Of a DNA stretch of 32,000 bases, positions 1 to 31,644 are shown one piece after another (the first letter of the stretch is position 1; every line of letters starts with the position of its first letter). Under the pieces are notes generated by a model. It was not told the DNA's origin. It worked only from the letters and a program-made list of their open reading frames with translations, and searched no databases. A program made the translations under genes and the position numbers. Source of the stretch: Mycobacterium sp. 852002-51057_SCH5723018 (lineage in GTDB: Bacteria > Actinomycetota > Actinomycetes > Mycobacteriales > Mycobacteriaceae); assembly GCF_001667035.1 (NCBI RefSeq), contig NZ_LZIR01000096.1, positions 60,860 through 92,859 of the forward strand. The letters run 5' to 3'.

Positions 1-149
1 GCAGCCAGACCCGGCTGGCGACGTGGGTGGCCGAACCGGGCCACACCGCGACGCCCGCGGGCAGCATCTCGACGCCGGTCGACCAGATCGCCGCCGTTCA
101 GGTGGTTTCCGCCGACAACGGCCAGGTTCTGCTGCAGCGCGCCATGTAA
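1..149 (+). CDS. rslA: C-terminal end of a membrane anti-sigma factor (RslA-like); 5' partial, continues upstream of the window
   Basis: Frame 3 reads SQTRLATWVAEPGHTATPAGSISTPVDQIAAVQVVSADNGQVLLQRAM* (stop 147-149). It aligns without gaps to the last 48 residues of the complete anti-sigma ORF at 11780-12520 (11 mismatches counted by eye). The symbol comes from my recollection of the M. tuberculosis RslA C-terminus and of the rslA / MarR-like Rv0737 / mmsB neighbourhood, which I cannot verify here. Confidence 0.6.
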   Translation, partial: SQTRLATWVAEPGHTATPAGSISTPVDQIAAVQVVSADNGQVLLQRAM

Positions 150-163
150 AACCCGACGCGGGG

Positions 164-191
164 TGAACTGAAGTTACCCACGCGTCGTATT
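164..191 (+). promoter_or_regulatory. ECF (SigL-type) promoter motif TGAACT-N16-CGTATT
   Basis: TGAACT at 164-169, a 16-nt spacer, CGTATT at 186-191. It lies 14 nt after the anti-sigma stop and 7 nt before ATG 199. The same box, spacing and context occur at 12536-12563. Confidence 0.55.
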
Positions 192-198
192 ACAAGAC

Positions 199-1941
199 AT
201 GCCCAGAAAGCAGCGGGTGGTCGACCTCCTCGTCGAGCGTCTCGCCTCGATCGGCGTCGACCACATCTTCGGCGTGGACGGCGCCAACATCGAGGACCTC
301 TACGACGCCGCACACTTCCGGTCCGACATCACCGCGGTCCTGGCAAAGCACGAGTTCTCCGCCGCCACCATGGCCGACGGGTACAGCCGCAGCGGCGCCG
401 GGCTCGGCGTCGTGGCTGCCACCTCCGGTGGCGGGGCGCTGAATCTGGTAGCGGCCCTTGGGGAGTCGCTGACGAGCCGGGTGCCGGTGTTGGCTCTGGT
501 CGGGCAAGCCCCGACAGCCATGGACGGCCGCGGCAGCTTCCAGGACACCAGCGGCCAAAACGGATCGCTGAACGCGCAGGCGTTGTTTTCGGCGGTGTCG
601 GTGTCGTGTGAGCGGGTGCTCACGCCGTCGGGCGTCGCGCCGGCGCTGTCCCGGGCGATCGCCGCGGCGCGCACCGGTGGTCCGGCGGTCCTGTTGCTGC
701 CCAAGGACATTCAGCAGGGGTACCTGGAATGCGATCGGGATGGCTGTCCGCCGCAGAACCCGCGTCCCATCGGCAACCCCCAACCGATCGTCGGGGTCCT
801 GCGCGACGCCGACGGCCCGGTCACGATCATCGTCGGCGAGCAGGTGGCCCGCGACGACGCCCGCGCCGAGCTGGAAGCGCTGCGGGCGGTGCTGCGGGCG
901 CGGGTGGCGACAGTCCCGGACGCCAAGGACGTGGCCGGCACGCCGGGTCTCGGGTCCTCGTCCGCGCTCGGGGTGACCGGAGTCATGGGCCACCCCGGTG
1001 TGGCCGAAGCGGTGGCCGGCAGCGCGGTGTGCCTGGTGGTCGGCACCCGCCTGTCGGTCACCGCGCGCACCGGGCTCGACGACGCCCTGGCGGCGGTGCC
1101 GACCGTCTCGATCGGCTCGGCGCCACCGTATGTTCCGGCCACCCACGTGCACACCGACGACCTGCGCGGCTCGCTGCGAATGCTGACCCAGGCGCTGTCC
1201 GGCACCGGACGGCCGACGCGGGTGCGGGTGCCCGACATGGTGCGTCGCACCGAACTGGCCCCGCCGCCGTTCGCCGGCTCGGGCGTGCGCTATCGCGACG
1301 CGATGGCGGTGCTGGACGGCTGCCTGCCCGACGGGACGGACATCGTGGTCGACGCCGGCAACACCGGCGCGGCGGCGATCCACTACCTGCCGGCACGGCG
1401 GGGCGGCAGGTTCGCGGTCGCGCTGGGCATGGGCGGCATGGGCTACAGCTTCGGCGCCGGCATCGGCATGGCCTTCGGGCGCGCCAACAGCGGACGGCCC
1501 GGTGGGCGCACCGTGGTGATCGCCGGTGACGGGGCGTTCTACATGCACGGCATGGAGGTCCACACCGCGGTGCAGTACCGGCTGCCGGTGACGTTCGTGT
1601 TGTTCAACAACAACGCCCACGCCATGTGCGTGACGCGCGAGCAGCTGTTCTACGACGACCTGTACAGCTATAACCGGTTCCACGCCAGCCAGCTGGGTGC
1701 TGGGTTGGCGGGCATGTTCCCCGGCCTGACGTCCGTCGACGTCGGCGACCTCGACGGCCTCGCCGCGGCCATGCGTGCGGCGCTGGCCGTCGACGGCCCG
1801 GCCGTGGTCAGCGTCGAATGCGCCGCCGACGAGATGCCGCCCTTCGCACCGTTTCTCACCCAGGCGTCGGCCAAAGCGACCGGCGCACAGGAGATTCCAA
1901 CCGCAAAGGAGAACCGGACCGATGTCGCTGCTAGCGCTTGA
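199..1941 (+). CDS. Thiamine diphosphate-dependent enzyme (acetolactate synthase / 2-oxoacid decarboxylase-carboligase superfamily)
   Basis: 580-aa ORF. The N-terminal pyrimidine-binding domain has the conserved Glu context LAKHEFSAATMADGYSR. The ThDP/Mg motif is GDG-x24-NN (GDGAFYMHGMEVHTAVQYRLPVTFVLFNNN). Confidence 0.9.
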   Translation: MPRKQRVVDLLVERLASIGVDHIFGVDGANIEDLYDAAHFRSDITAVLAKHEFSAATMADGYSRSGAGLGVVAATSGGGALNLVAALGESLTSRVPVLALVGQAPTAMDGRGSFQDTSGQNGSLNAQALFSAVSVSCERVLTPSGVAPALSRAIAAARTGGPAVLLLPKDIQQGYLECDRDGCPPQNPRPIGNPQPIVGVLRDADGPVTIIVGEQVARDDARAELEALRAVLRARVATVPDAKDVAGTPGLGSSSALGVTGVMGHPGVAEAVAGSAVCLVVGTRLSVTARTGLDDALAAVPTVSIGSAPPYVPATHVHTDDLRGSLRMLTQALSGTGRPTRVRVPDMVRRTELAPPPFAGSGVRYRDAMAVLDGCLPDGTDIVVDAGNTGAAAIHYLPARRGGRFAVALGMGGMGYSFGAGIGMAFGRANSGRPGGRTVVIAGDGAFYMHGMEVHTAVQYRLPVTFVLFNNNAHAMCVTREQLFYDDLYSYNRFHASQLGAGLAGMFPGLTSVDVGDLDGLAAAMRAALAVDGPAVVSVECAADEMPPFAPFLTQASAKATGAQEIPTAKENRTDVAASA

Positions 1942-2584
1942 GGACATCCCCACACCCATTGACGGCGTAACGCGAATCGAAACGAGCCCCCGGGAGAAGG
2001 CCACCCCGATCATCATGGACATGATGCGGTCGGTCTACCCGCACGATCAGGTCTTCGGGGAATACTGCACCGTCAACGATTACGTCGACTGTCCGCCCGA
2101 CGAGCTGTACGAATACATGGCCGACACGCGCAGCCTGGAGGAGTGGACCTACAGCCTGCGTGGCTTCACCCCCACCGACGAACCGGGCCTGTGGCTGGCC
2201 TACGACCGGCTCGGCTCGGAGACCAAGATCTACACCCACACCATCGCCAACCCACAAGCCCGGACCGTCGACTACCACTGCGCCTGGGATCAGGGCAAGC
2301 ACCTGTGGATGGTCTACCTGATGCGCGTCATCGACGCGCAGGTGGTGCTCGACAAGCCCGGTTCGGTTGTGCTGTGGACGAATTGCCATCACCCGTTCTA
2401 CGACAAAAACCCGTACCCGGAGACGGCTCCGCCGCAGCGCCCGGTGTGGGTCGGCGACTTCTGGGACATGTTCGGCGCCGGCCATCTGCTGGAGCTGAAG
2501 AACCTCAAGGCGATCGCCGAGTACCGCCACCGCAACGGGCTTCCGGTGACACCCGATTGGATGCGGCGAAAAGGGGAGCAATGA
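1922..2584 (+). CDS. Conserved hypothetical protein, possibly SRPBCC/START-like (polyketide-cyclase-like) fold
   Basis: ATG 1922 is preceded by AAGGAGA about 10 nt upstream and overlaps the ThDP gene end by 20 nt (the track start 1775 is rejected). 220 aa. It is about 80% identical to 12766-13437 (34 mismatches in 180 aligned residues, counted by eye, mostly conservative), which supports real coding. The fold assignment is a guess from size and sequence pattern. Confidence 0.8.
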   Translation: MSLLALEDIPTPIDGVTRIETSPREKATPIIMDMMRSVYPHDQVFGEYCTVNDYVDCPPDELYEYMADTRSLEEWTYSLRGFTPTDEPGLWLAYDRLGSETKIYTHTIANPQARTVDYHCAWDQGKHLWMVYLMRVIDAQVVLDKPGSVVLWTNCHHPFYDKNPYPETAPPQRPVWVGDFWDMFGAGHLLELKNLKAIAEYRHRNGLPVTPDWMRRKGEQ

Positions 2585-3603
2585 TGACCACGCCGAGCGT
2601 CAGCCTGATCGACGTCTCCACCTATCTGCCCGGGGAACCGATCGGCGCCGACTACTACGCGCAATTCGCCGAATCCGATGAGCTGCGGGACAACATCATG
2701 TTCCGGGCGCCCAGCTTCCGCCATCACGTCGCGCCGGACGAGAGTTCGATCGACATGATCGAGAGCGCGGCGCAGGGCCTGATCGAGCGGCACGGCCACG
2801 ACGTCGTCGAAGGCGCCGACGTGCTGATCACCCACACGCAGGTGCCCGACATGGCGTTCTACGGCCAAGGGGCCGGCATCGCGCACCGGCTGGGCATGCG
2901 GCCCTCCTGGGTGCTCGACCTGAACAACGGCGGGTGCGGGGCATTCGTGTTGGCGCTCAACGTGGCTCGCAAACTGCTGACGGCGGGCGAGGGGCGCACC
3001 GCGCTGATCGCCATCGCGCAAAACGCCGCCGGGCAGTTCTTCGACCAACCGACGATTCGGCGCAAGGCGCAGTCGGCGGTGCCCGGCGACGGGGCGGCGG
3101 TGGGGCTGGTCACGCTGTCCGACCAGTCACCCATCCTGGATGTCGAGTGCCGCACGTACGGCGAGTACGCCGGTGAAATGACGCTTTCGTTCGATCCGCC
3201 GCGCAAGTGGTGGCAGCCCGGGTCCGGCGAGGGCTCCATCGGCTTCACCGACAGCAAGATCACCAAGGTGCTGGCCCGCGGCAACCGGCAGGTCCCCGAG
3301 GTCGCGCTGGCGGTATGTGACCGAATCGGCCTGGCCGCCAAAGACATTGATCTGTTGGTCACCAACCAGCCCAACCGCGCGTTCCTGCGCAACTGGCGCG
3401 ACGCGCTCGAATTGCCGCCCGAACGCCATCGGGACACTTTCGATCAGTGTGGCAACCTGTTCGGCGCCGGAATCCCGATCAACCTCGACCACGCGATAGC
3501 CGACCGTCAGGTCAAGGCCGGCGACGTGGTCCTGATGGCGGCCTTCGCCCACGCCGGCGACTTCGCCGGCGCGGCGGCCGTGCGCTGGGGAGGGCGAGAC
3601 TGA
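2581..3603 (+). CDS. KAS III (FabH)-like condensing-enzyme family protein with a non-canonical active site
   Basis: ATG 2581 has GGGGAG upstream and an ATGA overlap with the previous stop. 340 aa. The active-site Cys context is LNNGGCGAFVLAL and the C-terminal Asn motif is CGNLFGAGIP. The position of the FabH HQAN motif reads VTNQPN. Confidence 0.9.
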   Translation: MMTTPSVSLIDVSTYLPGEPIGADYYAQFAESDELRDNIMFRAPSFRHHVAPDESSIDMIESAAQGLIERHGHDVVEGADVLITHTQVPDMAFYGQGAGIAHRLGMRPSWVLDLNNGGCGAFVLALNVARKLLTAGEGRTALIAIAQNAAGQFFDQPTIRRKAQSAVPGDGAAVGLVTLSDQSPILDVECRTYGEYAGEMTLSFDPPRKWWQPGSGEGSIGFTDSKITKVLARGNRQVPEVALAVCDRIGLAAKDIDLLVTNQPNRAFLRNWRDALELPPERHRDTFDQCGNLFGAGIPINLDHAIADRQVKAGDVVLMAAFAHAGDFAGAAAVRWGGRD

Positions 3604-4655
3604 TGCAACCCGTCCCGGGTCTGTTCGCCGCCGAGATCGACGAGGCGTTTCCCAACGCCGACGATCCGCTCGCCTTGTCGCTCAACGAGAATCCGTTTCC
3701 GCCGCTGCCGGCGGTGCGGTCGGCGTTGATCCGTTCGATCTACGCGGCCAACCGGTATCCGGAGTTCCTGCCGGAACGGCTGCGCGGCTTGATCGCGGGC
3801 CATGTCGGGGTGCCCGCCGACCACGTGGTGCTGGGCGCCGGCGCGACGGGCGTGGCGTTGCAGGCCCTGCACGCGCTGACCGCGCCGGGTGACGCGATAG
3901 CCATGGCGGCGCCGAACTTCGACGGGTATCCGATCATCGCGCAAATGGCGCGGCTGAACCCGCTGACCGTCCCGCTCGGCAGCGACGGCCACAACGACCT
4001 CGACGGGCTGGCCGACGCCGCCGCAAGCGCCCGCGTGGTGGTGGTGTGCCGCCCGCACAACCCGACCGGCACGCTGGAGCCCGTCGCCGAGCTGTTGGGG
4101 TTCCTGCGCCGGGTACCGGGCGACACCATCGTGCTGCTCGACGAGGCCTACATCGAGTTCGCCGCGCCCGAGCTCCGGGTCGACGTCGCGGCGTTGCTCG
4201 CCCAGTTTCCCAACGTGGTGGTGCTTCGGACGTTCTCCAAGGCGTACGGGCTGGCCGGGCTGCGGATCGGTTACGGGCTGGCGGCACCGGGGCTGGCTCG
4301 CACGCTGTGGTCCCAGCAGCTGCCGTTCGGCATCGCGCTCACCAGTTTGCTGGCGGTCGCGTCGTCCTATCAAGCCGAAGATCAACTGCTGCAACGGATC
4401 CAGTCGATCAACGCCGAACGTCGCTATCTGCGGATGCGGCTGAGCGCGTTGGGGATATACACCACAGACGCCCACGCGAACTTCATGTACCTGCCTTCGA
4501 GGGGTCGGCGGGACAGGTCGTGGCATGAGGTGTTCGCCGACAGCGGACTCCACGTCCGCCACTACGGCGACGGGGGCGCGCGGATCACCGTGGGCAACCG
4601 CGCGTCGACGCTGGCGGTGCTGTCCGCGATAGGAAAGACCTCGCTTCGGCCGTAG
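3603..4655 (+). CDS. PLP-dependent aminotransferase, class I/II (HisC / aromatic aminotransferase-like)
   Basis: TGATG overlap with the KAS III-like gene. 350 aa. Motifs: LSLNENPFPP, CRPHNPTG and the PLP-lysine motif RTFSKAYGLAGLRIGY. Confidence 0.9.
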   Translation: MQPVPGLFAAEIDEAFPNADDPLALSLNENPFPPLPAVRSALIRSIYAANRYPEFLPERLRGLIAGHVGVPADHVVLGAGATGVALQALHALTAPGDAIAMAAPNFDGYPIIAQMARLNPLTVPLGSDGHNDLDGLADAAASARVVVVCRPHNPTGTLEPVAELLGFLRRVPGDTIVLLDEAYIEFAAPELRVDVAALLAQFPNVVVLRTFSKAYGLAGLRIGYGLAAPGLARTLWSQQLPFGIALTSLLAVASSYQAEDQLLQRIQSINAERRYLRMRLSALGIYTTDAHANFMYLPSRGRRDRSWHEVFADSGLHVRHYGDGGARITVGNRASTLAVLSAIGKTSLRP

Positions 4656-4672
4656 ATGCGGTAAGAAAGGGC

Positions 4673-5176
4673 GTGGGCGCCTCACGATCCAAACGTGATC
4701 CGATCGCCGCGGCGCGCGACAACTGGGAGCGCGCCGGGTGGGGTGACGTGTCGCCGGGCATGGTCGCGGTCACCTCGGTGATGCGTGCCCATCAGATCCT
4801 GCTGGCGCGCGTCGAGGCCGCGTTGCGTCCCTACGACTTGAGTTTCTCCCGGTACGAGTTGTTGCGGCTGCTGGCGTTCAGCCGTACCGGAGCGCTGCCC
4901 ATCACCAAGGCGTCCGATCGCTTGCAGGTGCACGTCACCAGCGTCACCCACGCCATCCGCCGGCTGGAGGCCGACGGGCTGGTGCAGCGGGTGCCGCACC
5001 CCACCGACGGGCGCACCACGCTGGTGCAGATCACCGACCTCGGCCGGTCCACGGTCGAGGACGCCACCGTGACGCTCAACGAGCAGGTGTTCGCCGACAT
5101 CGGCATGGAAGCCAGCGAGTCGGAAGCGCTGGTGTCGTCCATAGAAACGTTGCGGCGCAACGCGGGCGATTTCTGA
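4673..5176 (+). CDS. MarR-family transcriptional regulator
   Basis: GTG 4673; 167 aa. It shows a winged-helix pattern (LSFSRYELLRLL ... LPITKASDRLQVHVTSVTHAIRRLEADGLVQRVPHPTDGRTTLVQIT). Confidence 0.85.
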   Translation: MGASRSKRDPIAAARDNWERAGWGDVSPGMVAVTSVMRAHQILLARVEAALRPYDLSFSRYELLRLLAFSRTGALPITKASDRLQVHVTSVTHAIRRLEADGLVQRVPHPTDGRTTLVQITDLGRSTVEDATVTLNEQVFADIGMEASESEALVSSIETLRRNAGDF

Positions 5177-5203
5177 ATCGGTGGCGCGCGTGGTCACATC
5201 CGT

Positions 5204-5234
5204 CCCACTTGTCCCGCCGCGGGCAAAAAGTGGG
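5204..5234. terminator. Hairpin between convergent MarR and mmsB genes (possible bidirectional terminator)
   Basis: CCCACTT (5204-5210) pairs with AAGTGGG (5228-5234), and there is internal GC pairing (cccgc/gcggg). It sits in the 113-nt gap between two convergent stops. There is no clear U-tract. Confidence 0.35.
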
Positions 5235-5289
5235 TTGCAGTCCTCGCAGGTGACAATGTGGCGTTTGTGAATACCGTTGCGGCAGTGCG

Positions 5290-6168
5290 TCAGCGCAGCA
5301 TCTCGATGACCGCGCTGAAGTCCTTGCCGGCGTGGGAGGCGTCGGACGCGATGAACTCTGCATAGATCTCGGCGGCGTGGGTGCCCAGCGGCGCCGCAGA
5401 ACCGGTCGAGACCACCGCGTCCATCGCCAGGGCCAGGTCCTTGTTCATCAGCGCGGTCGCGAAGCCCGGCTTGAAGTCGTTGTTGGCCGGCGAGGTCGGC
5501 ACCGGGCCCGGCGCCGGGCAGTTGGTGTGCACCGCCCAGCAGTTCCCCGTCGCGCCGGTGATGACGTCGAACAGCGACTGCGCCGACAGTCCCAGCTTCT
5601 CGGCAAGGACGAACGCCTCGCCGATCACGATCTGCTGCACCGCCAGCACCATGTTGTTGCACACCTTGGCGGCCTGTCCCGCCCCGGCCGCGCCGCAGTG
5701 AATGATCTTGCCCGCCATCGGTTCCAGCACAGGTCGCGCTCGCTCCAGCGCGGCCTCGTCGCCGCCCACCATGAACGCCAGCGTCCCGGCGACGGCGCCC
5801 TTGACCCCGCCCGAGACCGGCGCGTCCAGCTGCGAGACGCCGTGCGACTCGGCGAGCGCGTGCACCTCGCGCGCGTCGTTGACCGAGATCGTGGAGCTGT
5901 CGATGAACAGCGCGCCCGCCTTGGCGGCGGGCAGGATGTCGGCGTAGCAGCGTTTGACGATGTCGCCGTTGGGCAGCATGGTGATGGCCACGTCGGCATC
6001 AGCGACCGCGTCGGCGGCGGTGTCGAACATCGCGACCCCGGCAGTCGTTGCGGCGGCCGCCGCCGTGGGCACCGGGTCGTACCCGCCCACGGTGTGGCCG
6101 GCGGCAACGAGATTGGCGGACATGGGGCCGCCCATGTTGCCCAGCCCCAGGAACGCGATTGCCGTCAT
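5290..6168 (-). CDS. mmsB: 3-hydroxyisobutyrate dehydrogenase
   Basis: 292 aa with the N-terminal Rossmann motif IAFLGLGNMGGPMSANL. It is the last gene of an mmsA-fadE9-mmsB string, as in M. tuberculosis Rv0753c-Rv0751c. Confidence 0.9.
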   Translation of the reverse strand: MTAIAFLGLGNMGGPMSANLVAAGHTVGGYDPVPTAAAAATTAGVAMFDTAADAVADADVAITMLPNGDIVKRCYADILPAAKAGALFIDSSTISVNDAREVHALAESHGVSQLDAPVSGGVKGAVAGTLAFMVGGDEAALERARPVLEPMAGKIIHCGAAGAGQAAKVCNNMVLAVQQIVIGEAFVLAEKLGLSAQSLFDVITGATGNCWAVHTNCPAPGPVPTSPANNDFKPGFATALMNKDLALAMDAVVSTGSAAPLGTHAAEIYAEFIASDASHAGKDFSAVIEMLR

Positions 6169-6186
6169 TGACCCTCCTGCGCCCGC

Positions 6187-7353
6187 TCAAGAAGCCCTGA
6201 ACCGGGCGGCCTCTGCCCGGCCGATGACCACCCGCATGATTTCATTGGTCCCTTCCAGGATCCGATGCACCCGCAGATCGCGCAGGATCTTCTCCACACC
6301 GTACTCGCGCAGGTAACCGTAGCCGCCGTGCAGTTGCAGCGCCTTGTCGGCGACCTCGAAGCAGGTGTCGGTGACATAGCGCTTGGCCATCGCGCACAGT
6401 TCGACCTTGTCGGGGTCATTGGCGTCGAGGGCATTTGCCGCCCGCCACAACATCATTCGCGAGGTCTCAAGCCCGGTCGCCATGTCGGCCAGGGTGAACC
6501 GCACGGTCGGCTCGTCGAGCAGGGCTGAGCCGAACGCCTCCCGCTCCCGCACATACGCGCCCGCTTTGTCGAAGGCCGACTGCGCGCCGCCCAGCGAGCA
6601 CGCCGCGATGTTGAGCCGTCCGCCGTTGAGCCCGTTCATCGCGATGCCGAAGCCCGCCCCCTCGCCGTCGAGCCCGCCCAGCATCGCGTCGGCCGGCACC
6701 CGCACGCCCTCCAGGATCACCTGGGCGGCGGGCGGGGGGTGGCCGCCCATCTTCTCCTCGAGCGCACCGAAACTCAGCCCCTCGGAGCCCTTTTCGACGA
6801 CAAAGGCCGAGATGCCGCGCGGGCCCGGTCTTTCTGGACCGCCGGTTCTTGCCATCACCACGTACACGTCCGAGGCGCCCGCGCCGGAAATGAACTGCTT
6901 GACACCGTCGAGCACGTAGTCGCCGCCGTGCTTGACGGCGCGGGTGCTCAGCGCGCTGGCGTCCGACCCGGCGCCCGGTTCGGTGAGGCAGTAGCTGGCG
7001 ATGACGTCCATCGAGGCCAATCGCGGAACCCAGGCCTTGCGCTGTTCGGGGGTGCCGAAGGTGTCGATCATCCACGCGCACATGTTGTGGATGGACAGGA
7101 ACGCCGCCGTGACGGGGTCGGCGATCGCCAGCTGCTCGAAGATCCGGACCCCGTCGAGCCGGCGCAGCCCGCTGCCGCCGACGTCGTCGCGGCAGTAGAT
7201 CGCCGCCATGCCGAGTTCGGCGGATTCCCGCAACACGTCCGTCGGGAAGTGCTTGGTGGCATCCCATTCCAGGGCGTGCGGGGCGAGGCGCTTGGCGGCG
7301 AACGCGGCGGCCGTCTCGGTGATGACCCGTTCGTCGTCATTCAAAGTAAACAT
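6187..7353 (-). CDS. fadE9: Acyl-CoA dehydrogenase (isobutyryl-CoA dehydrogenase-like)
   Basis: 388 aa with ACAD patterns (YCLTEPGAGSD; the C-terminal QLHGGYGYLREYGVEKILRDLRVHRILEGTNEIM). It starts 4 nt after the mmsA stop. The symbol is assigned by synteny. Confidence 0.88.
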   Translation of the reverse strand: MFTLNDDERVITETAAAFAAKRLAPHALEWDATKHFPTDVLRESAELGMAAIYCRDDVGGSGLRRLDGVRIFEQLAIADPVTAAFLSIHNMCAWMIDTFGTPEQRKAWVPRLASMDVIASYCLTEPGAGSDASALSTRAVKHGGDYVLDGVKQFISGAGASDVYVVMARTGGPERPGPRGISAFVVEKGSEGLSFGALEEKMGGHPPPAAQVILEGVRVPADAMLGGLDGEGAGFGIAMNGLNGGRLNIAACSLGGAQSAFDKAGAYVREREAFGSALLDEPTVRFTLADMATGLETSRMMLWRAANALDANDPDKVELCAMAKRYVTDTCFEVADKALQLHGGYGYLREYGVEKILRDLRVHRILEGTNEIMRVVIGRAEAARFRAS

Positions 7354-7357
7354 CGTT

Positions 7358-8878: not shown

Positions 8879-8979
8879 CGTGTCTCTCTGAAGTCGTCTT
8901 TGCGCGATACTTGCATATCCTAGTAAATGCGGGCCCGGGTCACAAGGGCTCGAGAAGCGCCGCCGCCTCCCCGCCCACC

Positions 8980-9007
8980 TGAACCGCAAGCCGCTCCGGA
9001 TCGTGTC
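8980..9007 (+). promoter_or_regulatory. ECF (SigL-type) promoter motif TGAACC-N16-CGTGTC
   Basis: TGAACC at 8980-8985, a 16-nt spacer, CGTGTC at 9002-9007. It lies 54 nt upstream of ATG 9062 in the mmsA/FMO divergent intergenic region. It is an exact match to the SigL consensus as I recall it. Confidence 0.6.
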
Positions 9008-9061
9008 AGTGCTGGGTGCCCGAGATCCTCGGCCCCGGGAAACACGACGGGAGACGCGCGC

Positions 9062-11567: not shown

Positions 11568-11616
11568 CCGCCGGGGCGGCTTGAAACTCGGCTAACCGTG
11601 GCGGGTGTGCCACGGG

Positions 11617-11644
11617 TGAACCAGACAGGCGCTTCGGTCGTTTC
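11617..11644 (+). promoter_or_regulatory. ECF (SigL-type) promoter motif TGAACC-N16-CGTTTC
   Basis: TGAACC at 11617-11622, a 16-nt spacer, CGTTTC at 11639-11644. It lies in the 212-nt gap upstream of the second anti-sigma gene and 16 nt before a 40-codon ORF (11661-11783). Confidence 0.5.
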
Positions 11645-11779
11645 ACCAGCAGGAAGGTAAATGGAGCGCCTATTCCCAAGGCGCTCTACGACGGACCCGC
11701 CCCGGCGGCCGCCCGGAATGGCCTTCAGCTACGAAAACCCTTACGTACCAAGAAATATCCCACGAGACGGGAGTATACG

Positions 11780-12520
11780 ATGATGCCGCTATGGCGGCCC
11801 GGGACACCGATCGGCGGTGACCTATCCGGGCATGACGAGTACGCGATGTGGGATGCCGCATACGTGCTGGGATCTCTATCGTCCCCAGAAAGGCGGGAAT
11901 TCGAAGCGCACCTGCCCGAGTGTCTGTTGTGCCGCAGCGACGTCGGCGAGCTCAACGGCATCCCGGCCCTCCTGTCGCAGCTGGAGCGCGACGAGGTGGC
12001 GGTGATCGCCCAGGTCGGCGGCGCAGAACTGTCGCCACCCGACGAGTTGCTGCCGTCCCTGCTGGTCAAAGTGCACTGGCGGCGGCGCCGGTCCCGCATC
12101 GTGGCCTGGACGGCTGGGACCGCGGCAGCCGCGGTCCTCGCGATCGGTGTGTTCGTCGGCGTCACGGGCCAACCCTCGACGTCCGTGCCCATGCCGCCGC
12201 AGGCGAGCGTGGCGGTACAGCCGATGACACAGGTCGGAACCGACAAGCTCGCCTCGACGATCTCGCTCAGCAGCCAGCGGTGGGGAACGTCCATCTCGAT
12301 GAGCTGCGTCTGTCTGGCCCCGCTGAACGCCCATCACGACACGTTGGCGATGGTTGTGGTAGGTCGTGACGGTAGCCACACGCGGATGGCAACCTGGGTG
12401 GCAAATCCGGGTCACACGGCGATGCCCGCCGGCAGCATTTCAACACATGTCGATCAAATCGCTTCTGTGCAGGTGATTTCCGCCGACGACGGCCAGGTCC
12501 TCCTGGAGCGTTCGCTGTGA
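11780..12520 (+). CDS. Zinc-associated (HxxxCxxC) membrane anti-sigma factor, RslA paralogue, with no adjacent sigma gene
   Basis: 246 aa with GGGAG upstream. The ZAS motif is EFEAHLPECLLCRSD. A basic stretch RRRRSR is followed by one TM helix (IVAWTAGTAAAAVLAIGVFVGV) and an extracytoplasmic C-terminal domain. The C-terminus aligns to 1-149. Confidence 0.85.
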   Translation: MMPLWRPGTPIGGDLSGHDEYAMWDAAYVLGSLSSPERREFEAHLPECLLCRSDVGELNGIPALLSQLERDEVAVIAQVGGAELSPPDELLPSLLVKVHWRRRRSRIVAWTAGTAAAAVLAIGVFVGVTGQPSTSVPMPPQASVAVQPMTQVGTDKLASTISLSSQRWGTSISMSCVCLAPLNAHHDTLAMVVVGRDGSHTRMATWVANPGHTAMPAGSISTHVDQIASVQVISADDGQVLLERSL

Positions 12521-12535
12521 ATTTCCTACCCCGAG

Positions 12536-12563
12536 TGAACTGAAGTCACCCGCGGCTCGTGTT
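12536..12563 (+). promoter_or_regulatory. ECF (SigL-type) promoter motif TGAACT-N16-CGTGTT
   Basis: TGAACT at 12536-12541, a 16-nt spacer, CGTGTT at 12558-12563, 15 nt after the anti-sigma stop. It aligns with the box at 164-191 (gtgaactgaagtYacccRcg...tcgtRttac). Confidence 0.55.
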
Positions 12564-12591
12564 ACCGGGAGTTACGAAGTTAGGCAGGCAG

Positions 12592-12666
12592 ATGGCCAGG
12601 CAACACAGGGTGGTCGATCGTGTCGTCGAGCACGGTCGAACGTCGAATGCACTTAGCGTGCATTAG
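12592..12666 (+). pseudogene. Remnant of the ThDP-enzyme gene (internal deletion of about 1.6 kb)
   Basis: A 24-codon ORF, MARQHRVVDRVVEHGRTSNALSVH*. Its first 13 codons align to MPRKQRVVDLLVE of the gene at 199. The next stretch, acggtcgaacgtcgaatgc, resembles gtggtcagcgtcgaatgc near 1805-1822 of copy A, and similarity then decays. Confidence 0.6.
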
Positions 12667-12765
12667 ATTTCAACGCTGACACCGCCCGGGGGGTCGTCAG
12701 AATTGGCGGTAATGACCGACGTGGCAGCCGCCTTGTCTCAAATACTAATGAGGAGAACCGATTTC

Positions 12766-13437
12766 ATGTCCATTGCAGCGCTTGAAGATATCGCGGTCCA
12801 CAGCGGCACCACCGAGCCGATCGAGGGAGTGGTCCGTATCGAGACCTCGCCGCTTGAACAGACCGCCCCGACTTTCATGGCGAAGATGCGGTCGGTGTAT
12901 CCGCACGACGAGGTCTACGGCCAGTACTGCACGGTCAACGACTACGTCGACTGCCCACCCGATGAGCTGTTCGAATACCTGGCCGACACCCGCAGTCTCG
13001 AGGAGTGGACCTATACCCTGCGTGACTTCTCCCCGACCGCGGAGCCCGGGCTCTGGTTGGCCTACGACCGATTGCTCCCGGACACCAAGATCTACACCCG
13101 CACGGTGGCCAACGCCGAGGCCCGTACCGTCGACTATCACTGCGCGTGGGACCAGGGCAAGCACCTGTGGATGATCTATCTGATGCGGGTGGTCGACGCG
13201 CAGGATGTGCTCGGCAAGCCCGGTTCCGTTGTGCTGTGGACCAATTGCCGCCACCCGTTCTACGACCACAACCCTTATCCCGATGCCGCCCCGCCGGAGC
13301 GCACGGGCTGGGTGGGCGACTTCTGGGACATATTCGGAGTCGGTCACGCGCTGGAACTGAACAATCTCAAGTCAATCGCCGAATACCGCCACCGCAACGG
13401 CCTGCCGGTCAAGCCGGAATGGATGAGTACACCATGA
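12766..13437 (+). CDS. Conserved hypothetical protein, SRPBCC-like (paralogue of 1922-2584)
   Basis: ATG 12766 has GAGGAG 9 nt upstream (the track start 12703 is rejected). 223 aa; about 80% identical to copy A over the C-terminal 180 residues. Confidence 0.8.
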   Translation: MSIAALEDIAVHSGTTEPIEGVVRIETSPLEQTAPTFMAKMRSVYPHDEVYGQYCTVNDYVDCPPDELFEYLADTRSLEEWTYTLRDFSPTAEPGLWLAYDRLLPDTKIYTRTVANAEARTVDYHCAWDQGKHLWMIYLMRVVDAQDVLGKPGSVVLWTNCRHPFYDHNPYPDAAPPERTGWVGDFWDIFGVGHALELNNLKSIAEYRHRNGLPVKPEWMSTP

Positions 13438-14453
13438 ACCAACCCACCGTCAGCCTCGCCGACGTTTCCACCTATCTGCCCGGGGAACCCATCGCCGCCG
13501 ACTACTACGCGCAGTTCGCCGGCTCGGATGACCTGGCGTCCAACCTGATGTTCCGCGCGCCCAAGCTGCGTCATCACGTCGGGCCGGACGAAACCGCGAC
13601 CGATATGATCGAGCGAGCCGCACAGGGCCTGATCGAACGGCACGGCCACGACGTCATCGAAGGCGCCGACGTGTTGATCACCCACACCCAGGCACCCGAC
13701 CTGCCGTTCTATGGCGCCGGCGGGGGCGTCGCCCACCGGCTGGGCATGCGGCCGTCCTGGGTGCTCGACCTGCACAACGGTGGGTGCGCCGCTTTCGTGT
13801 TGGCGCTTAACGTCGCTCGTCAACTGTTGGCCTCAGGTTTGGGGCACACCGCGCTCATCGCCATCGCACAAAATGCCGCCGGCCAGGTCTTCGATCAGCC
13901 GGGAGTTCGGCGCAAGGCGCAGGCGGCGGTCCCCGGCGATGGCGCCGCGGTGGGCCTGGTCACCTTGTCCGACCGGTCGCCCATTCTCGATATCGAGTGC
14001 CGGACCTACGGCGAATACGCCGGTGAGATGACGCTCGCTTCGGACCCGCCCCGCAAGTGGTGGCAGCCCGGGGCCGGTGAGCTCTGCATCGGATTCACCG
14101 AAACCAAGATCACCAAGGTACTGGCTCGCGGCAATCGACAGGTCCCCGAGGTGGCGCTGGCCGTCTGTGATCGAATCGGCCTGCCGTCCAAGGACATCGA
14201 CCTGCTGGTCACAAATCAGCCCAACCGGGTGTTCCTGCGCAACTGGCGCGAGGCGCTCGACGTGCCGCGCGAACGTCATCGCGACACATTCGATGAGTGC
14301 GGCAACCTGTTCGGCGCGGGCATCCCGATCAACTTGGATCGCGCGATATCGGACGGTCAGGTCAAGGCCGGTGACGTCGTGATGATGGCCGCCTTCGCGC
14401 ACGCCGGCGACTTCGCGGGTGCGGCGGCGGTGCGCTGGGGCGGACGAAGCTGA
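13434..14453 (+). CDS. KAS III (FabH)-like family protein (paralogue of 2581-3603)
   Basis: ATG 13434 has an ATGA overlap with the previous stop (alternative ATG at 13419). 339 aa. It has the same Cys context (LHNGGCAAFVLAL), the same VTNQPN in place of HQAN, and CGNLFGAGIP. Confidence 0.9.
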   Translation: MNQPTVSLADVSTYLPGEPIAADYYAQFAGSDDLASNLMFRAPKLRHHVGPDETATDMIERAAQGLIERHGHDVIEGADVLITHTQAPDLPFYGAGGGVAHRLGMRPSWVLDLHNGGCAAFVLALNVARQLLASGLGHTALIAIAQNAAGQVFDQPGVRRKAQAAVPGDGAAVGLVTLSDRSPILDIECRTYGEYAGEMTLASDPPRKWWQPGAGELCIGFTETKITKVLARGNRQVPEVALAVCDRIGLPSKDIDLLVTNQPNRVFLRNWREALDVPRERHRDTFDECGNLFGAGIPINLDRAISDGQVKAGDVVMMAAFAHAGDFAGAAAVRWGGRS

Positions 14454-15502
14454 TGCTACCCCTGCTGGAGGCCAGCCCCGTCACCGCCGGAATCCTCGAT
14501 GCGCTGCCGAACGCGACCGATCCATTCGCTTTGTCGCTCAACGAGAATCCGTTTCCACCGCTGCCGGGGGTGCGCTCGGCGCTGGTCCGCTCGATCGACG
14601 TCGCCAACCGGTATCCGGAGTTCCTGCCCGATCGGTTGCGCCGCCTGATCGCCGGTCATATCGGGGTTGGCGACGAGCAAGTCGTGCTCGGGGCGGGTGC
14701 AAGCGGCGTGGTGATGCAGGTCCTGCACGCCGTCACGCGGCCCGGTGATCGGATTGTGCTGAGCGAGCCGACTTTCGACGGTTATCCGATCTTCGCGAAG
14801 ATGGCCCGCCTGACATCGGTCACCGTTCCGCTCGATAAGCGCGGCCACCACAACCTGGACGCAATGGCCGATGCGGCGGCAGACGCCAGTGTCGTCGTCT
14901 TGTGTCGGCCCGACAACCCGACCGGCACCCTCGAACCGGTCGCGGACGTACAGCGCTTCCTGCGCAGGGTGCCGGGCGACACCGTCGTTTTGCTCGACGA
15001 GGCGTACATCGAGTTTGTTGTGCCCCAGCTCCGCATCGACGGACCCGACCTGATTCGCCGCTTTCCGAATGTCGTTGTGGTGCGCACGTTCTCCAAGGCA
15101 TATGGCTTGGCCGGTCTCCGCATCGGGTACGGGTTCTCCGCACCGGAACTGGCCAGCACACTGTGGGGGATGCAGTTGCCGTTCGGCATGGGCATCACAA
15201 GCCTGGTCGCGGTGGCGGCGTGCTACGACGCCGAAGACCAGCTGCGGCAACGCGTTCTGCGGATCACCGGAGAGCGCGATTACCTGTCCCGGCGCCTTCG
15301 GGCAAAGGGCGTATACACCACCGACGGGCACGCCAACTTCGTTTACCTGCCAGCGGCCCGGCGCCCCTGGTGCGAGGTGTTCGGCGACACCGGCCTGAAG
15401 GCCCGCTACTACCCTGACGGCGCCGCACGGATCACCGTCGGAAGCCGCGCGTCCACACAGGCGGTGCTGGCCGCAGTGGCCACGTCGCGGTCCGCTGGCT
15501 AG
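14453..15502 (+). CDS. PLP-dependent aminotransferase, class I/II (paralogue of 3603-4655)
   Basis: Same TGATG overlap as copy A. 349 aa. Motifs: LSLNENPFPP, CRPDNPTG, RTFSKAYGLAGLRIGY. Confidence 0.9.
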   Translation: MLPLLEASPVTAGILDALPNATDPFALSLNENPFPPLPGVRSALVRSIDVANRYPEFLPDRLRRLIAGHIGVGDEQVVLGAGASGVVMQVLHAVTRPGDRIVLSEPTFDGYPIFAKMARLTSVTVPLDKRGHHNLDAMADAAADASVVVLCRPDNPTGTLEPVADVQRFLRRVPGDTVVLLDEAYIEFVVPQLRIDGPDLIRRFPNVVVVRTFSKAYGLAGLRIGYGFSAPELASTLWGMQLPFGMGITSLVAVAACYDAEDQLRQRVLRITGERDYLSRRLRAKGVYTTDGHANFVYLPAARRPWCEVFGDTGLKARYYPDGAARITVGSRASTQAVLAAVATSRSAG

Positions 15503-15510
15503 TGCGGCGG

Positions 15511-15538
15511 TGAACTTCTCGTCGAAGTCCCGCGTGGT
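15511..15538 (+). promoter_or_regulatory. ECF (SigL-type) promoter-like motif TGAACT-N16-CGTGGT
   Basis: TGAACT at 15511-15516, a 16-nt spacer, CGTGGT at 15533-15538. It lies 8 nt after the aminotransferase stop and 19 nt before ATG 15558. It has the weakest -10 box of the five, and the predicted start site would fall at or near the AGGAGG RBS. Confidence 0.4.
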
Positions 15539-15557
15539 AGCGGTAGGAGGTTTGACG

Positions 15558-16805
15558 ATGGACCCACTGCTGACGCTGCCAGCCCGGTCGCTTCGGATCC
15601 TCGTCGTCGGCGCGGGCGTGAGCGGCATTTCCGTCGCCCGGGGATTATTGCGTGACGGCCATGACGTCACCGTCTTCGACCGGCGGCCGGATGTGAAGGC
15701 AGGCGGCGGCGCCGTCACCATCTGGTCCAATGGCTCGGTCGTTCTGGGGCAGCTGGGGGTCGATATGGACGGGGCCGGTCAGCCACTGTCCACCGTGCGG
15801 GTCACGACACCGATGGGCCGCTCGGTCGCCACGATGGACCTGAGCGCCATCATCGATCGGCTGGGGGCACCGGTTCGGATGGTGCCACGCCGAGTCCTGC
15901 TCGAGCGTCTGCTGGAAGGCTTTCCGACCGATCGAATCCGGTGTAACACCCGTGCGGTCGGAGTCGTCAATACGCACAACGGGGTTCGGCTCGAGTTCGA
16001 AGACGGCAGCTCCGCCGAAGGAGATCTGTTGATCGGCGCCGATGGCCTGCACTCGATGGTTCGAGGCATCGTCGGTGCGCCCCCCGCGAAGCCGACCGGC
16101 TGGTGCAGCTGGCAGGGGCTGGTCACCCTGCCAGACATCGGCGACAAGCACGTCGCCCAGATGATCATCGGCGAGCACGGAAACCTTGGACTATGGCCGG
16201 CCGGAGGTTCGGATCTGCAGTGGTGGTTCGACTTGCCGTGGTCACACGACTTCGTCAGACCGGAAAGCCCGATCGACATGATCCGGTCCCATTTCGGAGG
16301 ATGGTCCGACTTGGCCGACCGAGTGCTCGCGACATTGACCGACGAGGACCTGGCCCCGTCGCCGTTCCCGCATTTTCGGCATCCGGTACCCGGCCCGGGC
16401 CACGGGGCGGTGACGTTGCTCGGCGATGCCGCGCACACGATGCCGCCGACCCTGGCGCAGGGAACCAATCAGGCGCTGCTCGACACGATGGTCTTGTGCA
16501 AGGCGCTTTCGGATTTCCGAAAGGGCGGCGACGGGGTGCGCAGCAACCTCCGCGACCTTTCGAACGCGCTGCGCTGGTATGAGAAGACCAGGCGCCGCAA
16601 GGTCGAGGCGGTGTCCTGGGTGACCACGCAGCAAGTGTCGCGCAGCGAGTCCGCGCTGAGGCCGGCGGCGATGATCTCGGACCGCTTCATGAGCTGGGCC
16701 CTGACAACGTTTCTGTGCGCGGTGAGTCACCGCCGGATGTCGGCGAAAATCAGCAGAGACCTCGCGGCCGCTGCGACCACCCATCTCGTCGGTGCGAATG
16801 AATAA
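15558..16805 (+). CDS. FAD-dependent aromatic-ring monooxygenase (group A flavoprotein hydroxylase)
   Basis: ATG 15558 has AGGAGG 7 nt upstream. 415 aa. Motifs: ILVVGAGVSGISVARGL (GxGxxG), LLIGADGLHSMVR, LLGDAAHTMPPTLAQGTNQAL. Confidence 0.88.
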   Translation: MDPLLTLPARSLRILVVGAGVSGISVARGLLRDGHDVTVFDRRPDVKAGGGAVTIWSNGSVVLGQLGVDMDGAGQPLSTVRVTTPMGRSVATMDLSAIIDRLGAPVRMVPRRVLLERLLEGFPTDRIRCNTRAVGVVNTHNGVRLEFEDGSSAEGDLLIGADGLHSMVRGIVGAPPAKPTGWCSWQGLVTLPDIGDKHVAQMIIGEHGNLGLWPAGGSDLQWWFDLPWSHDFVRPESPIDMIRSHFGGWSDLADRVLATLTDEDLAPSPFPHFRHPVPGPGHGAVTLLGDAAHTMPPTLAQGTNQALLDTMVLCKALSDFRKGGDGVRSNLRDLSNALRWYEKTRRRKVEAVSWVTTQQVSRSESALRPAAMISDRFMSWALTTFLCAVSHRRMSAKISRDLAAAATTHLVGANE

Positions 16806-17910
16806 GTCGATGGCTTCAAACTTCAAGGCCACCAAGGTGCCACCCGCGTGGCTGGCCCGCGCTGTCGAGTGGATTCGCCACTACCTGTATCGGCTTCATC
16901 AACGGCTGACACCCGCGCCGGCAGCGATGATGGAGATGATCATTGCCACCTGGACATCGCAGGCGATCACCGTGGCAGCCCAACTCGGCGTCGCCGACGC
17001 CCTGGCCGACGGCCCGCTGCCGATCGACGAGCTGGCGGCCCGGGTGGGCGCGGACGCGGACGCGCTGCACCGGCTGCTGCGGGCATTGATCGGCAAGGGC
17101 GTCTTCCGACATCGCCCCGACGGACGCTGTGAGCTGAATTCCCTTGCCGGTACGCTGCGTTCGGACGCGCCGATCTCGATGATGTGGGCGGCGCAGTTCT
17201 ACGGGTCACGCGAACAGCGCGAGCGCTGGACCCTGATGGCGGACGCGATCCGCACCGGAAGTACCGTCGTCCCGGCACTGCGCGGCGCGGAGAGCTTCGA
17301 CTACTTCGCCGGGTACCCGGAGTTCGCCGAACTCTTCAATCAGACGATGACGAGCGTTTCGCAGCTGACGGACGGGTCGGTGGTCGCCGGCTACGACTTC
17401 AGCGCCTACCCCACGATCGTCGACGTGGGCGGCGGGCGGGGTCCACTGCTGGCCGCCATCCTGGCGGCGGCGCCGGATTCCCGGGGCGTACTCTACGACC
17501 TGCCGCGGGTGGTCGCGGACGTCCCAAAGCTGTTGCGCGACCGCAACCTTGCGGACCGGGTGTGCATCGCGGAGGGGTCGTTTTTCGACAGCGTTCCGTG
17601 CGGCGGTGACGCCTACATCCTGAAGAACGTCATCCACGACTGGCCCGACGAAAAAGCGGTGCAGATCCTGCGTAACGTCCGCGCGGCAGCCGGACCACTG
17701 GCCACGGTGTTGCTGGTCGAACTGGTCATCCCCGAGCACGACCGCGACTTCCCCGGGAAATGGGTGGATTTGGAGATGCTGCTGAATTTAGGCGCCCGCG
17801 AACGGACCGCCACCCAGTATCGAGATCTGCTCAGCCAGGCCGGATTCCAGATGACACGGGTGGTGCAGACCGCTTCGCCCCTCAGCGTGGTCGAGGCCCG
17901 GCCGGCGTAA
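16792..17910 (+). CDS. Class I SAM-dependent O-methyltransferase (COMT / Methyltransf_2 type with N-terminal dimerisation domain)
   Basis: The SAM motif is IVDVGGGRGPLL, with downstream DAYILKNVIHDW. The start is ambiguous: GTG 16792, ATG 16798 (overlapping the upstream stop) or ATG 16810. Confidence 0.88.
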   Translation: MRMNKSMASNFKATKVPPAWLARAVEWIRHYLYRLHQRLTPAPAAMMEMIIATWTSQAITVAAQLGVADALADGPLPIDELAARVGADADALHRLLRALIGKGVFRHRPDGRCELNSLAGTLRSDAPISMMWAAQFYGSREQRERWTLMADAIRTGSTVVPALRGAESFDYFAGYPEFAELFNQTMTSVSQLTDGSVVAGYDFSAYPTIVDVGGGRGPLLAAILAAAPDSRGVLYDLPRVVADVPKLLRDRNLADRVCIAEGSFFDSVPCGGDAYILKNVIHDWPDEKAVQILRNVRAAAGPLATVLLVELVIPEHDRDFPGKWVDLEMLLNLGARERTATQYRDLLSQAGFQMTRVVQTASPLSVVEARPA

Positions 17911-17952
17911 GTATCACCGCCGCGCTGCCGGCCGGGTTAGCCTTTACCCCGT

Positions 17953-18186
17953 ATGCACACCATCGAGGCCGACTACCTGGTCGTCGGCGCGGGCGCCATG
18001 GGAATGGCGTTCACCGACACGCTGGTATCCGAGACGGACGCCCGCGTGGTGCTGGTGGACCGCAGCCACCAGCCGGGTGGGCGCTGGACCACGGCCGGAA
18101 TGGCCAAGTCGGCGCTGTCGGCCTCCGCCACGAAGCTTGACCGGCTGATGCTCGAACCAAGACGCGTTCGCCGAGACCCCGTGTAA
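17953..18186 (+). pseudogene. Truncated N-terminal fragment of a FAD/NAD(P)-binding oxidoreductase
   Basis: In this 77-codon ORF the first ~45 residues form a flavoprotein N-terminus (DYLVVGAGAMGMAF ... VVLVDRSHQPGGRW). The sequence then loses any family pattern and stops. Relatives as I recall them are several hundred aa long. Confidence 0.5.
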
Positions 18187-18218
18187 CCCGAGCTGATATT
18201 GATCGGTGAAGGAGGCAC

Positions 18219-27249: not shown

Positions 27250-27278
27250 GGTTCTTCCGAACCCGCCGGGTGGTGGCG

Positions 27279-30930: not shown

Positions 30931-30984
30931 CGTAAAGCCCGAAGCAACCACCGACGAGTAGACAAGAACAGGATCGAAACAGCC

Positions 30985-31098: not shown

Positions 31099-31127
31099 GC
31101 CTTTTAGGTCGCCCACACAACTGAATG

Positions 31128-31638: not shown

Positions 31639-31644
31639 TCCCCC

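Follow-up and report, generated by a model that had tools for sequence, protein, structure and literature searches.

The closest described relatives of the system considered here are the carbazole alkaloid clusters of Streptomyces, the core pathway of which has been reconstituted biochemically with four enzymes, CqsB1, CqsB2, CqsB3 and CqsB7, corresponding to NzsJ, NzsI, NzsH and NzsD, respectively (PMC7466098). CqsB7 converts tryptophan to indole-3-pyruvate, CqsB3 joins indole-3-pyruvate and pyruvate, CqsB1 condenses the CqsB3 product decarboxylatively with an acyl thioester, and CqsB2 closes ring A, yielding the carbazole (PMC7466098). The carbazomycin (cbz) cluster of Streptomyces luteosporeus/luteoverticillatus contains no acyl carrier protein (ACP) gene but encodes an O-methyltransferase (OMT) and an FAD oxidase (PMC11610953). 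Here we describe a 32,000-nucleotide stretch (hereafter, the window) of the genome of Mycobacterium sp. 852002-51057_SCH5723018 (contig NZ_LZIR01000096.1, positions 60,860 to 92,859), in which a cassette of four genes encodes homologs of all four core enzymes and is accompanied by a partial second copy, candidate tailoring genes and putative promoters of the extracytoplasmic function (ECF) sigma factor SigL. Because the four Streptomyces counterparts have assigned pathway steps, the cassette is a characterized gene combination, not an unrecognized one as originally predicted; it has not been characterized in mycobacteria, however, and both the presence and the control of the carbazole core in these bacteria seem to be undescribed. 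Judging from sequence comparison, we consider it reasonably probable that the region encodes a SigL-controlled mycobacterial pathway in which tryptophan, pyruvate and an acyl thioester of housekeeping origin are assembled into a tricyclic carbazole that is then tailored by O-methylation and hydroxylation.

Genes in positions 1-17910 were called by combining frame analysis based on GC content at third codon positions (GC3), translation and Pfam; domain families were assigned with Pfam, and equivalog scores were judged against the curated NCBIfam cut-offs. This procedure reproduced the domain calls of the original prediction for the core and the four tailoring genes, and the translational coupling it had reported was exact at all three junctions of the core cassette (a 20-nt overlap at 1922-1941, ATGA at 2581-2584 and TGATG at 3601-3605). 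For the comparison with the Cqs enzymes, we used a Streptomyces locus that encodes a protein 100% identical to CqsB2 over 181 aligned residues, together with the neighboring CqsB1-B7. The window enzyme that depends on thiamine diphosphate (ThDP) is 35% identical to CqsB3 (E=3e-80) and 37% identical to the ThDP enzyme of the carbazomycin-type cluster (E=2e-84), and shares with CqsB3 the top neighbors in the PDB, BbmA and CsmA, on which our literature search returned nothing relevant. For the aminotransferase, identity to CqsB7 amounts to 46% (E=3.5e-89); its best PDB match is 4R2N, a “putative phenylalanine aminotransferase” (E=3.5e-54, compared with ~1e-34 for HisC), so that, by sequence, it is a member of the aromatic aminotransferase group rather than HisC. 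The protein resembling beta-ketoacyl-ACP synthase III (KAS III) is 27-29% identical to CqsB1/CbzF (27% in the case of CqsB1) and scores much higher against CqsB1 (145 bits, E=2e-44) and the Cbz-type KAS (150 bits) than against the canonical KAS III CqsB5 (67 bits, E=4e-16). Overall, the values obtained for the core with the carbazomycin-type cluster are similar to those obtained with Cqs. A chance neighborhood of acetolactate synthase, FabH and HisC genes of primary metabolism would fit the best generic NCBIfam names of three of the proteins (acetolactate synthase, beta-ketoacyl-ACP synthase III and histidinol-phosphate transaminase), but all three scores fall under the curated cut-offs (174 vs 538, 94 vs 292 and 223 vs 277 bits, respectively), each protein is nearer to its carbazole-pathway counterpart, the KAS lacks the catalytic His, and the genes are translationally coupled to that of a CqsB2 homolog, which makes this explanation hardly credible. 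On the question of orthology to a known pathway, which had been raised with the original prediction, the cassette is indeed homologous to a characterized one, but at identities of 27-46% its products are homologs, not orthologs of a characterized mycobacterial pathway.

The most telling member of the cassette is the 220-aa protein, which has a single match among solved structures, namely, the carbazole synthase CqsB2 (PDB 6IPV/6IPW; E=4.9e-48, 42% identity). In an alignment of 30 homologs from Mycobacteriales, Streptomyces, Sorangium, cyanobacteria and Legionella, residues corresponding to Tyr144, Tyr172, His206 and Glu209 of CqsB2 are invariant and are all kept in the window cyclase, whereas the Glu105 position is occupied by Asp in all five Mycobacteriales cyclases of a separate alignment; of the five residues proposed to be catalytic, four are thus retained (CqsB2 numbering was taken from the alignment and agrees with the published residues). 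Cyclases from Mycobacteriales group tightly together and are only ~40-46% identical to those of Streptomyces, myxobacteria and cyanobacteria. When an AlphaFold (AF2) model of the cyclase (predicted local distance difference test score, 85) was compared with known structures using Foldseek, 6IPV came first (E=4e-20), followed by PYR/PYL, XoxI and thebaine synthase (probability 1.0), which have Bet v 1/START folds. According to this model, the cyclase is a protein of the SRPBCC/Bet v 1 helix-grip fold with an internal pocket, as had been suspected from its sequence, and shares the fold as well as the catalytic residues with CqsB2. Scytonemin biosynthesis by ScyA, ScyB and ScyC follows a like logic, with an amino acid converted to an arylpyruvate, a ThDP-dependent acyloin step and a dedicated cyclase that closes a ring onto the indole, but involves no KAS III step, and the window cassette is not a member of that system. 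In particular, membership of the cyclase in the ScyC family was rejected (20.9 bits against NCBIfam NF035924, with a cut-off of 400). A weak match nevertheless aligns cyclase residues 51-134 with the N-terminus of ScyC (E=1.8e-4) and may reflect distant kinship of two indole-acyloin cyclases.

In the KAS III-like protein, the HQ(A/P)N signature of FabH and CqsB1 is replaced by VTNQPN, such that the Cys and the second Asn are invariant but the catalytic His is substituted by Asn, and the Cys-His-Asn triad of CqsB1 is not found. The missing His, already recognized in the original prediction, is a lineage-wide trait: VTNQPN is present in 72 of the 72 mycobacterial KAS loci found, in both window copies, and in Rhodococcus and Tsukamurella, whereas the homologs from Streptomyces (CqsB1), Sorangium and cyanobacteria have THQPN. 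Given the loss of the His that CqsB1 keeps and the replacement of Glu105 by Asp in the cyclase, the substrate or the chemistry may differ from that in Streptomyces, and this is one of several points that weigh against a carbazole product. No product is known from any Mycobacterium; the characterized enzymes are not closely similar (KAS, 27-29% identity; ThDP enzyme, 35-37%; cyclase, 39-46%); the closest solved aminotransferase is annotated as a phenylalanine aminotransferase; and the oxidase of the vanillyl-alcohol oxidase/berberine bridge enzyme (VAO/BBE) type in the window matches the BBE protein of the Cbz cluster (CbzC homolog) weakly (39 bits) and is not orthologous to it. The same enzyme families could yield another class of product if phenylpyruvate or 4-hydroxyphenylpyruvate were the substrate, or if condensation or cyclization proceeded differently, the outcome being a non-carbazole, acyloin-derived aromatic compound resembling a naphthol or quinone. 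The divergence of the KAS, the two catalytic substitutions, the annotation of the solved aminotransferase and the separation of the Mycobacteriales cyclases from the others are all compatible with such a product. We nevertheless regard it as rather unlikely, given the invariance of the four remaining catalytic residues of the cyclase, the similarity of the aminotransferase to the tryptophan aminotransferase CqsB7, the occurrence of carbazoles in Tsukamurella, a genus that has this type of cassette, and the presence of an OMT homolog next to the triad in other phyla.

Retaining the carbazole as the preferred product, we infer the substrates and the order of events from the Streptomyces homologs. 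Acting on an aromatic amino acid, which is most likely tryptophan, the aminotransferase would yield the 2-oxo acid (indole-3-pyruvate), the KAS III-like protein would perform a decarboxylative condensation with an acyl thioester from general metabolism, and the CqsB2-like cyclase would close and aromatize ring A. The group A hydroxylase, the OMT, the flavin monooxygenase (FMO) and the VAO-type oxidase could then decorate the ring, for example, by O-methylation of the C3/C4 oxygens as in carbazomycin. The homology to Cqs and Cbz thus speaks for the direction of the earlier proposal, an amino acid-derived, possibly aromatic, acyloin-type metabolite. Compared to the window, cqs/nzs add an ACP, a canonical KAS III that supplies 3-hydroxybutyryl-ACP, a prenyltransferase and a P450, none of which is encoded in the window; no gene for a PP-binding (ACP) domain or a second type of KAS was found among positions 1-32000. 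The cbz cluster likewise combines the aminotransferase, ThDP enzyme, cyclase and KAS III-like core (29-46% identity) with no dedicated ACP or starter KAS, and also has a PF00891 OMT and a FAD_binding_4 oxidase. However, its gene order (KAS-cyclase-ThDP-FAD-aminotransferase-SDR-OMT) differs, its KAS retains the His, and its short-chain dehydrogenase/reductase (SDR) gene has no counterpart in the window, which, in turn, goes beyond cbz in having the FMO, the group A hydroxylase, a duplicated cassette and putative ECF sigma control. The Cys-Asn-Asn variant of KAS III and the ACP-free design are of enzymological interest in their own right.

The proposed link between the cassette and the tailoring genes holds for the hydroxylase and the OMT, which are tied to the cassette in other species and even in other phyla. 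The M. europaeum/nebraskense/colombiense group encodes hydroxylase homologs in the interval from rslA to the ThDP gene, and M. intermedium does so immediately past the aminotransferase gene. In the M. europaeum group, the hydroxylase gene shares this interval with genes for a membrane protein, a small methyltransferase and an ABC exporter. These genes make up a movable module (L008 2607-8195 and L060 12754-19373) encoding the hydroxylase, a 200-aa membrane protein, a 210-aa S-adenosylmethionine-dependent methyltransferase, and an FtsX-type ABC permease with its ATPase, which is located before the ThDP gene or after the aminotransferase gene depending on the Mycobacterium species. The window OMT is 35% identical to the OMT of the Cbz-type cluster (CbzMT homolog; E=7e-26) and 40% identical, over the full length, to an OMT encoded next to ThDP, KAS and cyclase genes in the cyanobacterium Gloeotrichia (E=1.7e-85); the latter match indicates that the association of the OMT with the core recurs across phyla. 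In Gloeotrichia echinulata, the ThDP-KAS-cyclase-OMT genes (L085 2455-13239) are flanked by genes for an aromatic ammonia-lyase and a transposase-split AMP-binding ligase, and a Glu/Leu/Phe/Val-type dehydrogenase gene stands where the aminotransferase gene would be expected; this could be a cluster of the hyellazole (1-phenylcarbazole) type.

The cyclase family has at least 595 matches among species-representative genomes, and the distribution data presented here rest on the best 80 of these. Nearly all of the best 80 come from Mycobacteriaceae, including M. europaeum, M. nebraskense, M. scrofulaceum, M. colombiense, M. mantenii, M. intermedium, M. shimoidei and Mycolicibacterium species, and ~60 of the 80 loci show the order antisigma-ThDP-cyclase-KAS-aminotransferase-MarR, followed by the mms operon. 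Named cyclase homologs were also found in Gordonia, Williamsia, Nocardia, Rhodococcus and Tsukamurella. In Rhodococcus jostii, genes for an ECF sigma factor 58% identical to the mycobacterial one, a zinc anti-sigma factor and the four-gene cassette are neighbors in the same order. A divergent gene for a cupredoxin-domain protein, with its own copy of TGAAC-N17-CGT, lies between the anti-sigma and ThDP genes of this bacterium (L083 7738-8136, reverse strand). M. smegmatis encodes a sigma factor (MSMEG_1486) and a MarR regulator (MSMEG_1492), with four genes between rslA and the MarR gene; MSMEG_1488-1491 are a candidate cassette. Hundreds of genomes at the species level, from Mycobacterium, Mycolicibacterium, Rhodococcus, Nocardia, Gordonia and Tsukamurella, carry the cassette, although carbazole alkaloids are not known from Mycobacterium, and our literature search found no paper linking the carbazole pathway to this genus.

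Within Mycobacteriales, a precedent for the predicted chemistry comes from Tsukamurella pseudospumae, the source of the antioxidant lipocarbazoles (J Nat Prod 2009, as cited in PMC7466098, ref. 7). A different strain of this genus, Tsukamurella sp. 8F, which is not the producer, has the same cassette type, with translationally coupled ThDP, cyclase, KAS (Asn variant) and aminotransferase genes and no ACP gene. The fatty-acyl side chain of the lipocarbazoles would fit housekeeping acyl donors; in the literature searched, no gene cluster has been assigned to these compounds. In strain 8F, the cassette adjoins thiG, thiS, a thiO-like gene and thiE (L088 10873-14823), and this adjacency of thiamine genes to a ThDP-dependent pathway may be a coincidence.

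The evidence on regulation comes from the DNA at the edge of the window and from a recurrent promoter motif. The window opens within the 3' end of an rslA-like gene; in relatives, the full rslA-like gene follows adk-map-sigma, placing sigL just upstream of the window edge. In those relatives that are closest to the window (cyclases 96-93% identical), the genes upstream of its starting point run adk-map-sigma-antisigma, which is the order of Rv0733-Rv0736 in M. tuberculosis, with an Rv0737-type MarR gene next. The sigma factor encoded upstream of rslA in the relatives scores 272 bits against NCBIfam NF007227 (cut-off, 202), and, as judged in the relatives from this score and from the adk-map-sigma-antisigma-MarR synteny, the cognate sigma factor is a SigL ortholog. 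In the closest relative, a metagenome-assembled genome, the sigL frame (L001 6813-7421) appears to be shifted after ~90 codons, probably due to an assembly error.

The promoter motif shared by the operons, already noticed in the original prediction, can be written TGAACY-N16-CGTD and occurs at five sites in the window (164, 8980, 11617, 12536 and 15511), all on the forward strand, all intergenic and each ahead of an operon, compared to 0.24 sites expected from shuffled sequences, none of 100 of which reached five. Of 74 related loci, 66 have the exact motif upstream of the ThDP gene, in most cases 35 or 36 nt ahead of the start codon, with the two elements alone conserved while the spacer drifts. 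The -10 element of the first promoter ends ~10 nt before the ATG of the ThDP gene, and this spacing suggests a near-leaderless mRNA. The second promoter is conserved upstream of the FMO gene in four related loci (L001, L007, L017 and L011). The argument that these are SigL promoters rests on the motif preceding the sigma gene itself in relatives: TGAAC-N17-CGT was detected before the SigL-type sigma gene in eight of the eight loci checked and in Rhodococcus, where R. jostii has it ahead of the sigma gene and again ahead of the ThDP gene. From this conservation we strongly infer that SigL controls the five operons, which bears out the common SigL-type promoter originally envisaged.

Could the motif be something other than a SigL promoter, such as a repressor site or the target of another ECF sigma factor, or could the cluster be effectively silent, so that ECF gating is the wrong description? 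A second ECF sigma factor is encoded at 18210-18770, the cassette of Tsukamurella sp. 8F has neither the motif nor an adjacent sigma gene, and the window does not include sigL itself. These observations count against SigL control, but the motif has -35/-10 geometry and a fixed distance to start codons, its elements are conserved across a drifting spacer, all loci checked have it ahead of the SigL-type sigma gene, and the cassette directly follows rslA in ~60 loci. The other ECF sigma factor was rejected as the gating one because it belongs to a different family (53 bits on NF007227, the model on which the upstream sigma factor reaches 272) and, in relatives, is paired with a Rieske-domain protein at another location, an arrangement that is conserved. 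Accordingly weighed, an origin of the motif unconnected to SigL appears improbable.

Under SigL control, the release of SigL from RslA, a redox-sensitive zinc anti-sigma factor (PMC2877774), would switch on the five operons; expression should follow this release because the five promoters are of the same type as that of sigL. The SigL regulon reportedly includes sigL-rslA itself (PMC4105308). The MarR gene starts 18 nt past the stop codon of the aminotransferase gene, a post-cassette position that is conserved, and is probably co-transcribed with the cassette. Given that the sigL-rslA promoter is reportedly bound and activated by the homologous Rv0737/Ms_1492 (PMC13002591), this regulator would feed back positively on sigL-rslA. 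In M. tuberculosis, the SigL-RslA regulon includes sigL-rslA, mpt53, pks10-pks7 and Rv1139c-Rv1138c (PMC4105308, PMC2877774). The module there is orthologous by synteny and family score, and similarly places genes of the secondary metabolite type under a compact ECF promoter; to this regulon, the window would add five operons and a second anti-sigma paralog.

The second anti-sigma gene encodes a protein with the HxxxCxxC motif and one transmembrane segment (its sequence includes EFEAHLPECLLC), has no sigma gene adjacent, and is ~60-69% identical to rslA of relatives. It is followed by a second copy of the cassette, and the homology between the copies spans the C-terminus of the anti-sigma factor, the promoter and the first 40 nt of the ThDP gene, of which only a 24-codon stub is left in copy 2, so that this copy is without an intact ThDP gene. 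Ka/Ks between the copies is 0.17 for the cyclase, 0.18 for the KAS and 0.27 for the aminotransferase, indicating that both are under purifying selection. The cyclase of copy 2 keeps the catalytic residues, its KAS has VTNQPN, and its aminotransferase is 42% identical to CqsB7 (E=1.5e-83). Copy 2 would probably be fed by the product of the single ThDP enzyme, giving a second series of congeners, and the second RslA paralog, if driven by SigL, would provide negative feedback.

In most of the mycobacteria examined, the cassette is the immediate downstream neighbor of sigL-rslA and would provide SigL, the physiological role of which is still vague, with a specific output that can be tested; overexpression of sigL, deletion of rslA and the Rv0737-type MarR are direct handles for awakening the cluster. 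The connection also ties a redox-sensing anti-sigma factor to a class of compounds known for radical scavenging. Tentatively, and with more doubt than confidence, we propose that the ancestral role of SigL/RslA in Mycobacteriales was to switch on a lipophilic, radical-scavenging carbazole, similar to the lipocarbazoles and of the catechol/quinone type. If so, oxidation of RslA would be the trigger for an inducible small-molecule antioxidant or redox shield of the lipid-rich envelope, the second cassette and second RslA paralog would diversify and damp the response, and the pathway would have been lost from M. tuberculosis while the switch was retained. In M. tuberculosis H37Rv, Rv0737 comes directly after rslA (Rv0736), and the cassette appears to be missing.

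The original prediction took positions 1-17910 as one pathway; this span includes the unrelated mms operon (5290-8878), and the duplicated cassette and second anti-sigma gene had gone unmentioned. The mmsA-fadE9-mmsB genes were rejected as part of the pathway because they are merely adjacent, lie on the opposite strand, lack the motif and encode ordinary valine catabolism; that their intermediate 3-hydroxyisobutyryl-CoA might serve as a beta-hydroxyacyl donor is pure speculation. Among the tailoring genes, those for the FMO-like enzyme and the FAD_binding_4 oxidase share 20 nt, and the hydroxylase gene overlaps the OMT gene. The features of the region are listed in Table 1.

Table 1. Coordinates of the cassette, its partial second copy, the predicted promoters and the surrounding genes in the window
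Feature	Position	Strand	Basis
rslA-like (anti-SigL) gene, 3' end	1-147	+	translation aligns with C-terminus of anti-sigma 11780-12520
Predicted SigL-type promoter P1, TGAAC-N17-CGT	164-189	+	motif
Putative ThDP-dependent acyloin synthase, CqsB3/NzsH/CbzD homolog	199-1941	+	Pfam TPP_enzyme_N/M/C and homology
Carbazole-synthase-like cyclase, 220 aa, CqsB2/NzsI homolog	1922-2584	+	6IPV match; no Pfam match
KAS III-like condensing enzyme, CqsB1/NzsJ homolog, Cys-Asn-Asn triad	2581-3603	+	homology
Class I/II aminotransferase, aromatic-type, CqsB7/NzsD homolog	3603-4655	+	homology
MarR regulator, Rv0737/Ms_1492 homolog	4673-5176	+	Pfam MarR
mmsB-fadE9-mmsA valine catabolism operon	5290-8878	-	
Predicted SigL-type promoter P2	8980-9005	+	motif
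Class B flavin monooxygenase (FMO-like), candidate tailoring enzyme	9062-10249	+	Pfam Pyr_redox_3, FMO-like
FAD_binding_4 (VAO/BBE-type) oxidase, candidate tailoring enzyme	10230-11567	+	Pfam PF01565
Predicted SigL-type promoter P3	11617-11642	+	motif
Second RslA-like zinc anti-sigma factor	11780-12520	+	Pfam zf-HC2, NCBIfam anti-sigma
Predicted SigL-type promoter P4, paralogous to P1	12536-12561	+	motif
ThDP gene 5' remnant, 24-codon ORF	12592-12631	+	30/40 nt identical to 199-238
Cyclase paralog, copy 2	12766-13437	+	76% aa identity to copy 1
KAS III-like paralog, copy 2	13434-14453	+	83% aa identity to copy 1
Aminotransferase paralog, copy 2	14453-15502	+	66% aa identity to copy 1
Predicted SigL-type promoter P5	15511-15536	+	motif
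Group A FAD-dependent aromatic hydroxylase, candidate tailoring enzyme	15558-16805	+	Pfam FAD_binding_3
O-methyltransferase (OMT)	16798-17910	+	Pfam Dimerisation and Methyltransf_2

Beyond the OMT gene, an 81-codon open reading frame (ORF; 17941-18186), the first 52 residues of which match an FAD/NAD-binding oxidoreductase, is a truncated remnant of a gene that relatives have at full length in the interval from mmsA to the ECF sigma gene; this truncation points to an insertion of the block 8980-17910, or a deletion of the oxidoreductase gene, at this site. The ECF sigma gene is translationally coupled to a gene whose 234-aa product has a Rieske [2Fe-2S] domain at the C-terminus (the block spans 18210-19471), and many relatives have the same two genes downstream of mmsA; the Rieske-domain protein may be a redox-sensing anti-sigma partner.

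The high-GC window also carries PE-PGRS, LpqH, rmlB/C and infA-rpmJ-rpsM-rpsK genes. A 762-aa ORF (26389-28677, reverse strand) shows a shift in the codon-position GC pattern near 27150 and has a luciferase-like domain only in residues 499-594; probably, it represents two genes or a frame artifact. The gene at 28769-30568 (reverse strand) encodes a 599-aa fusion of a response-regulator receiver with a thioredoxin-reductase-like pyridine nucleotide-disulfide oxidoreductase, an unusual architecture. The window ends with infA-rpmJ-rpsM-rpsK (30691-31998), and the relatives' loci L001, L007 and L008 have adk-map right upstream of sigL; hence, a block of ~30 kb is located inside the otherwise universal secY-adk-map/infA-rpmJ-rpsM junction of the ribosomal-protein supercluster.

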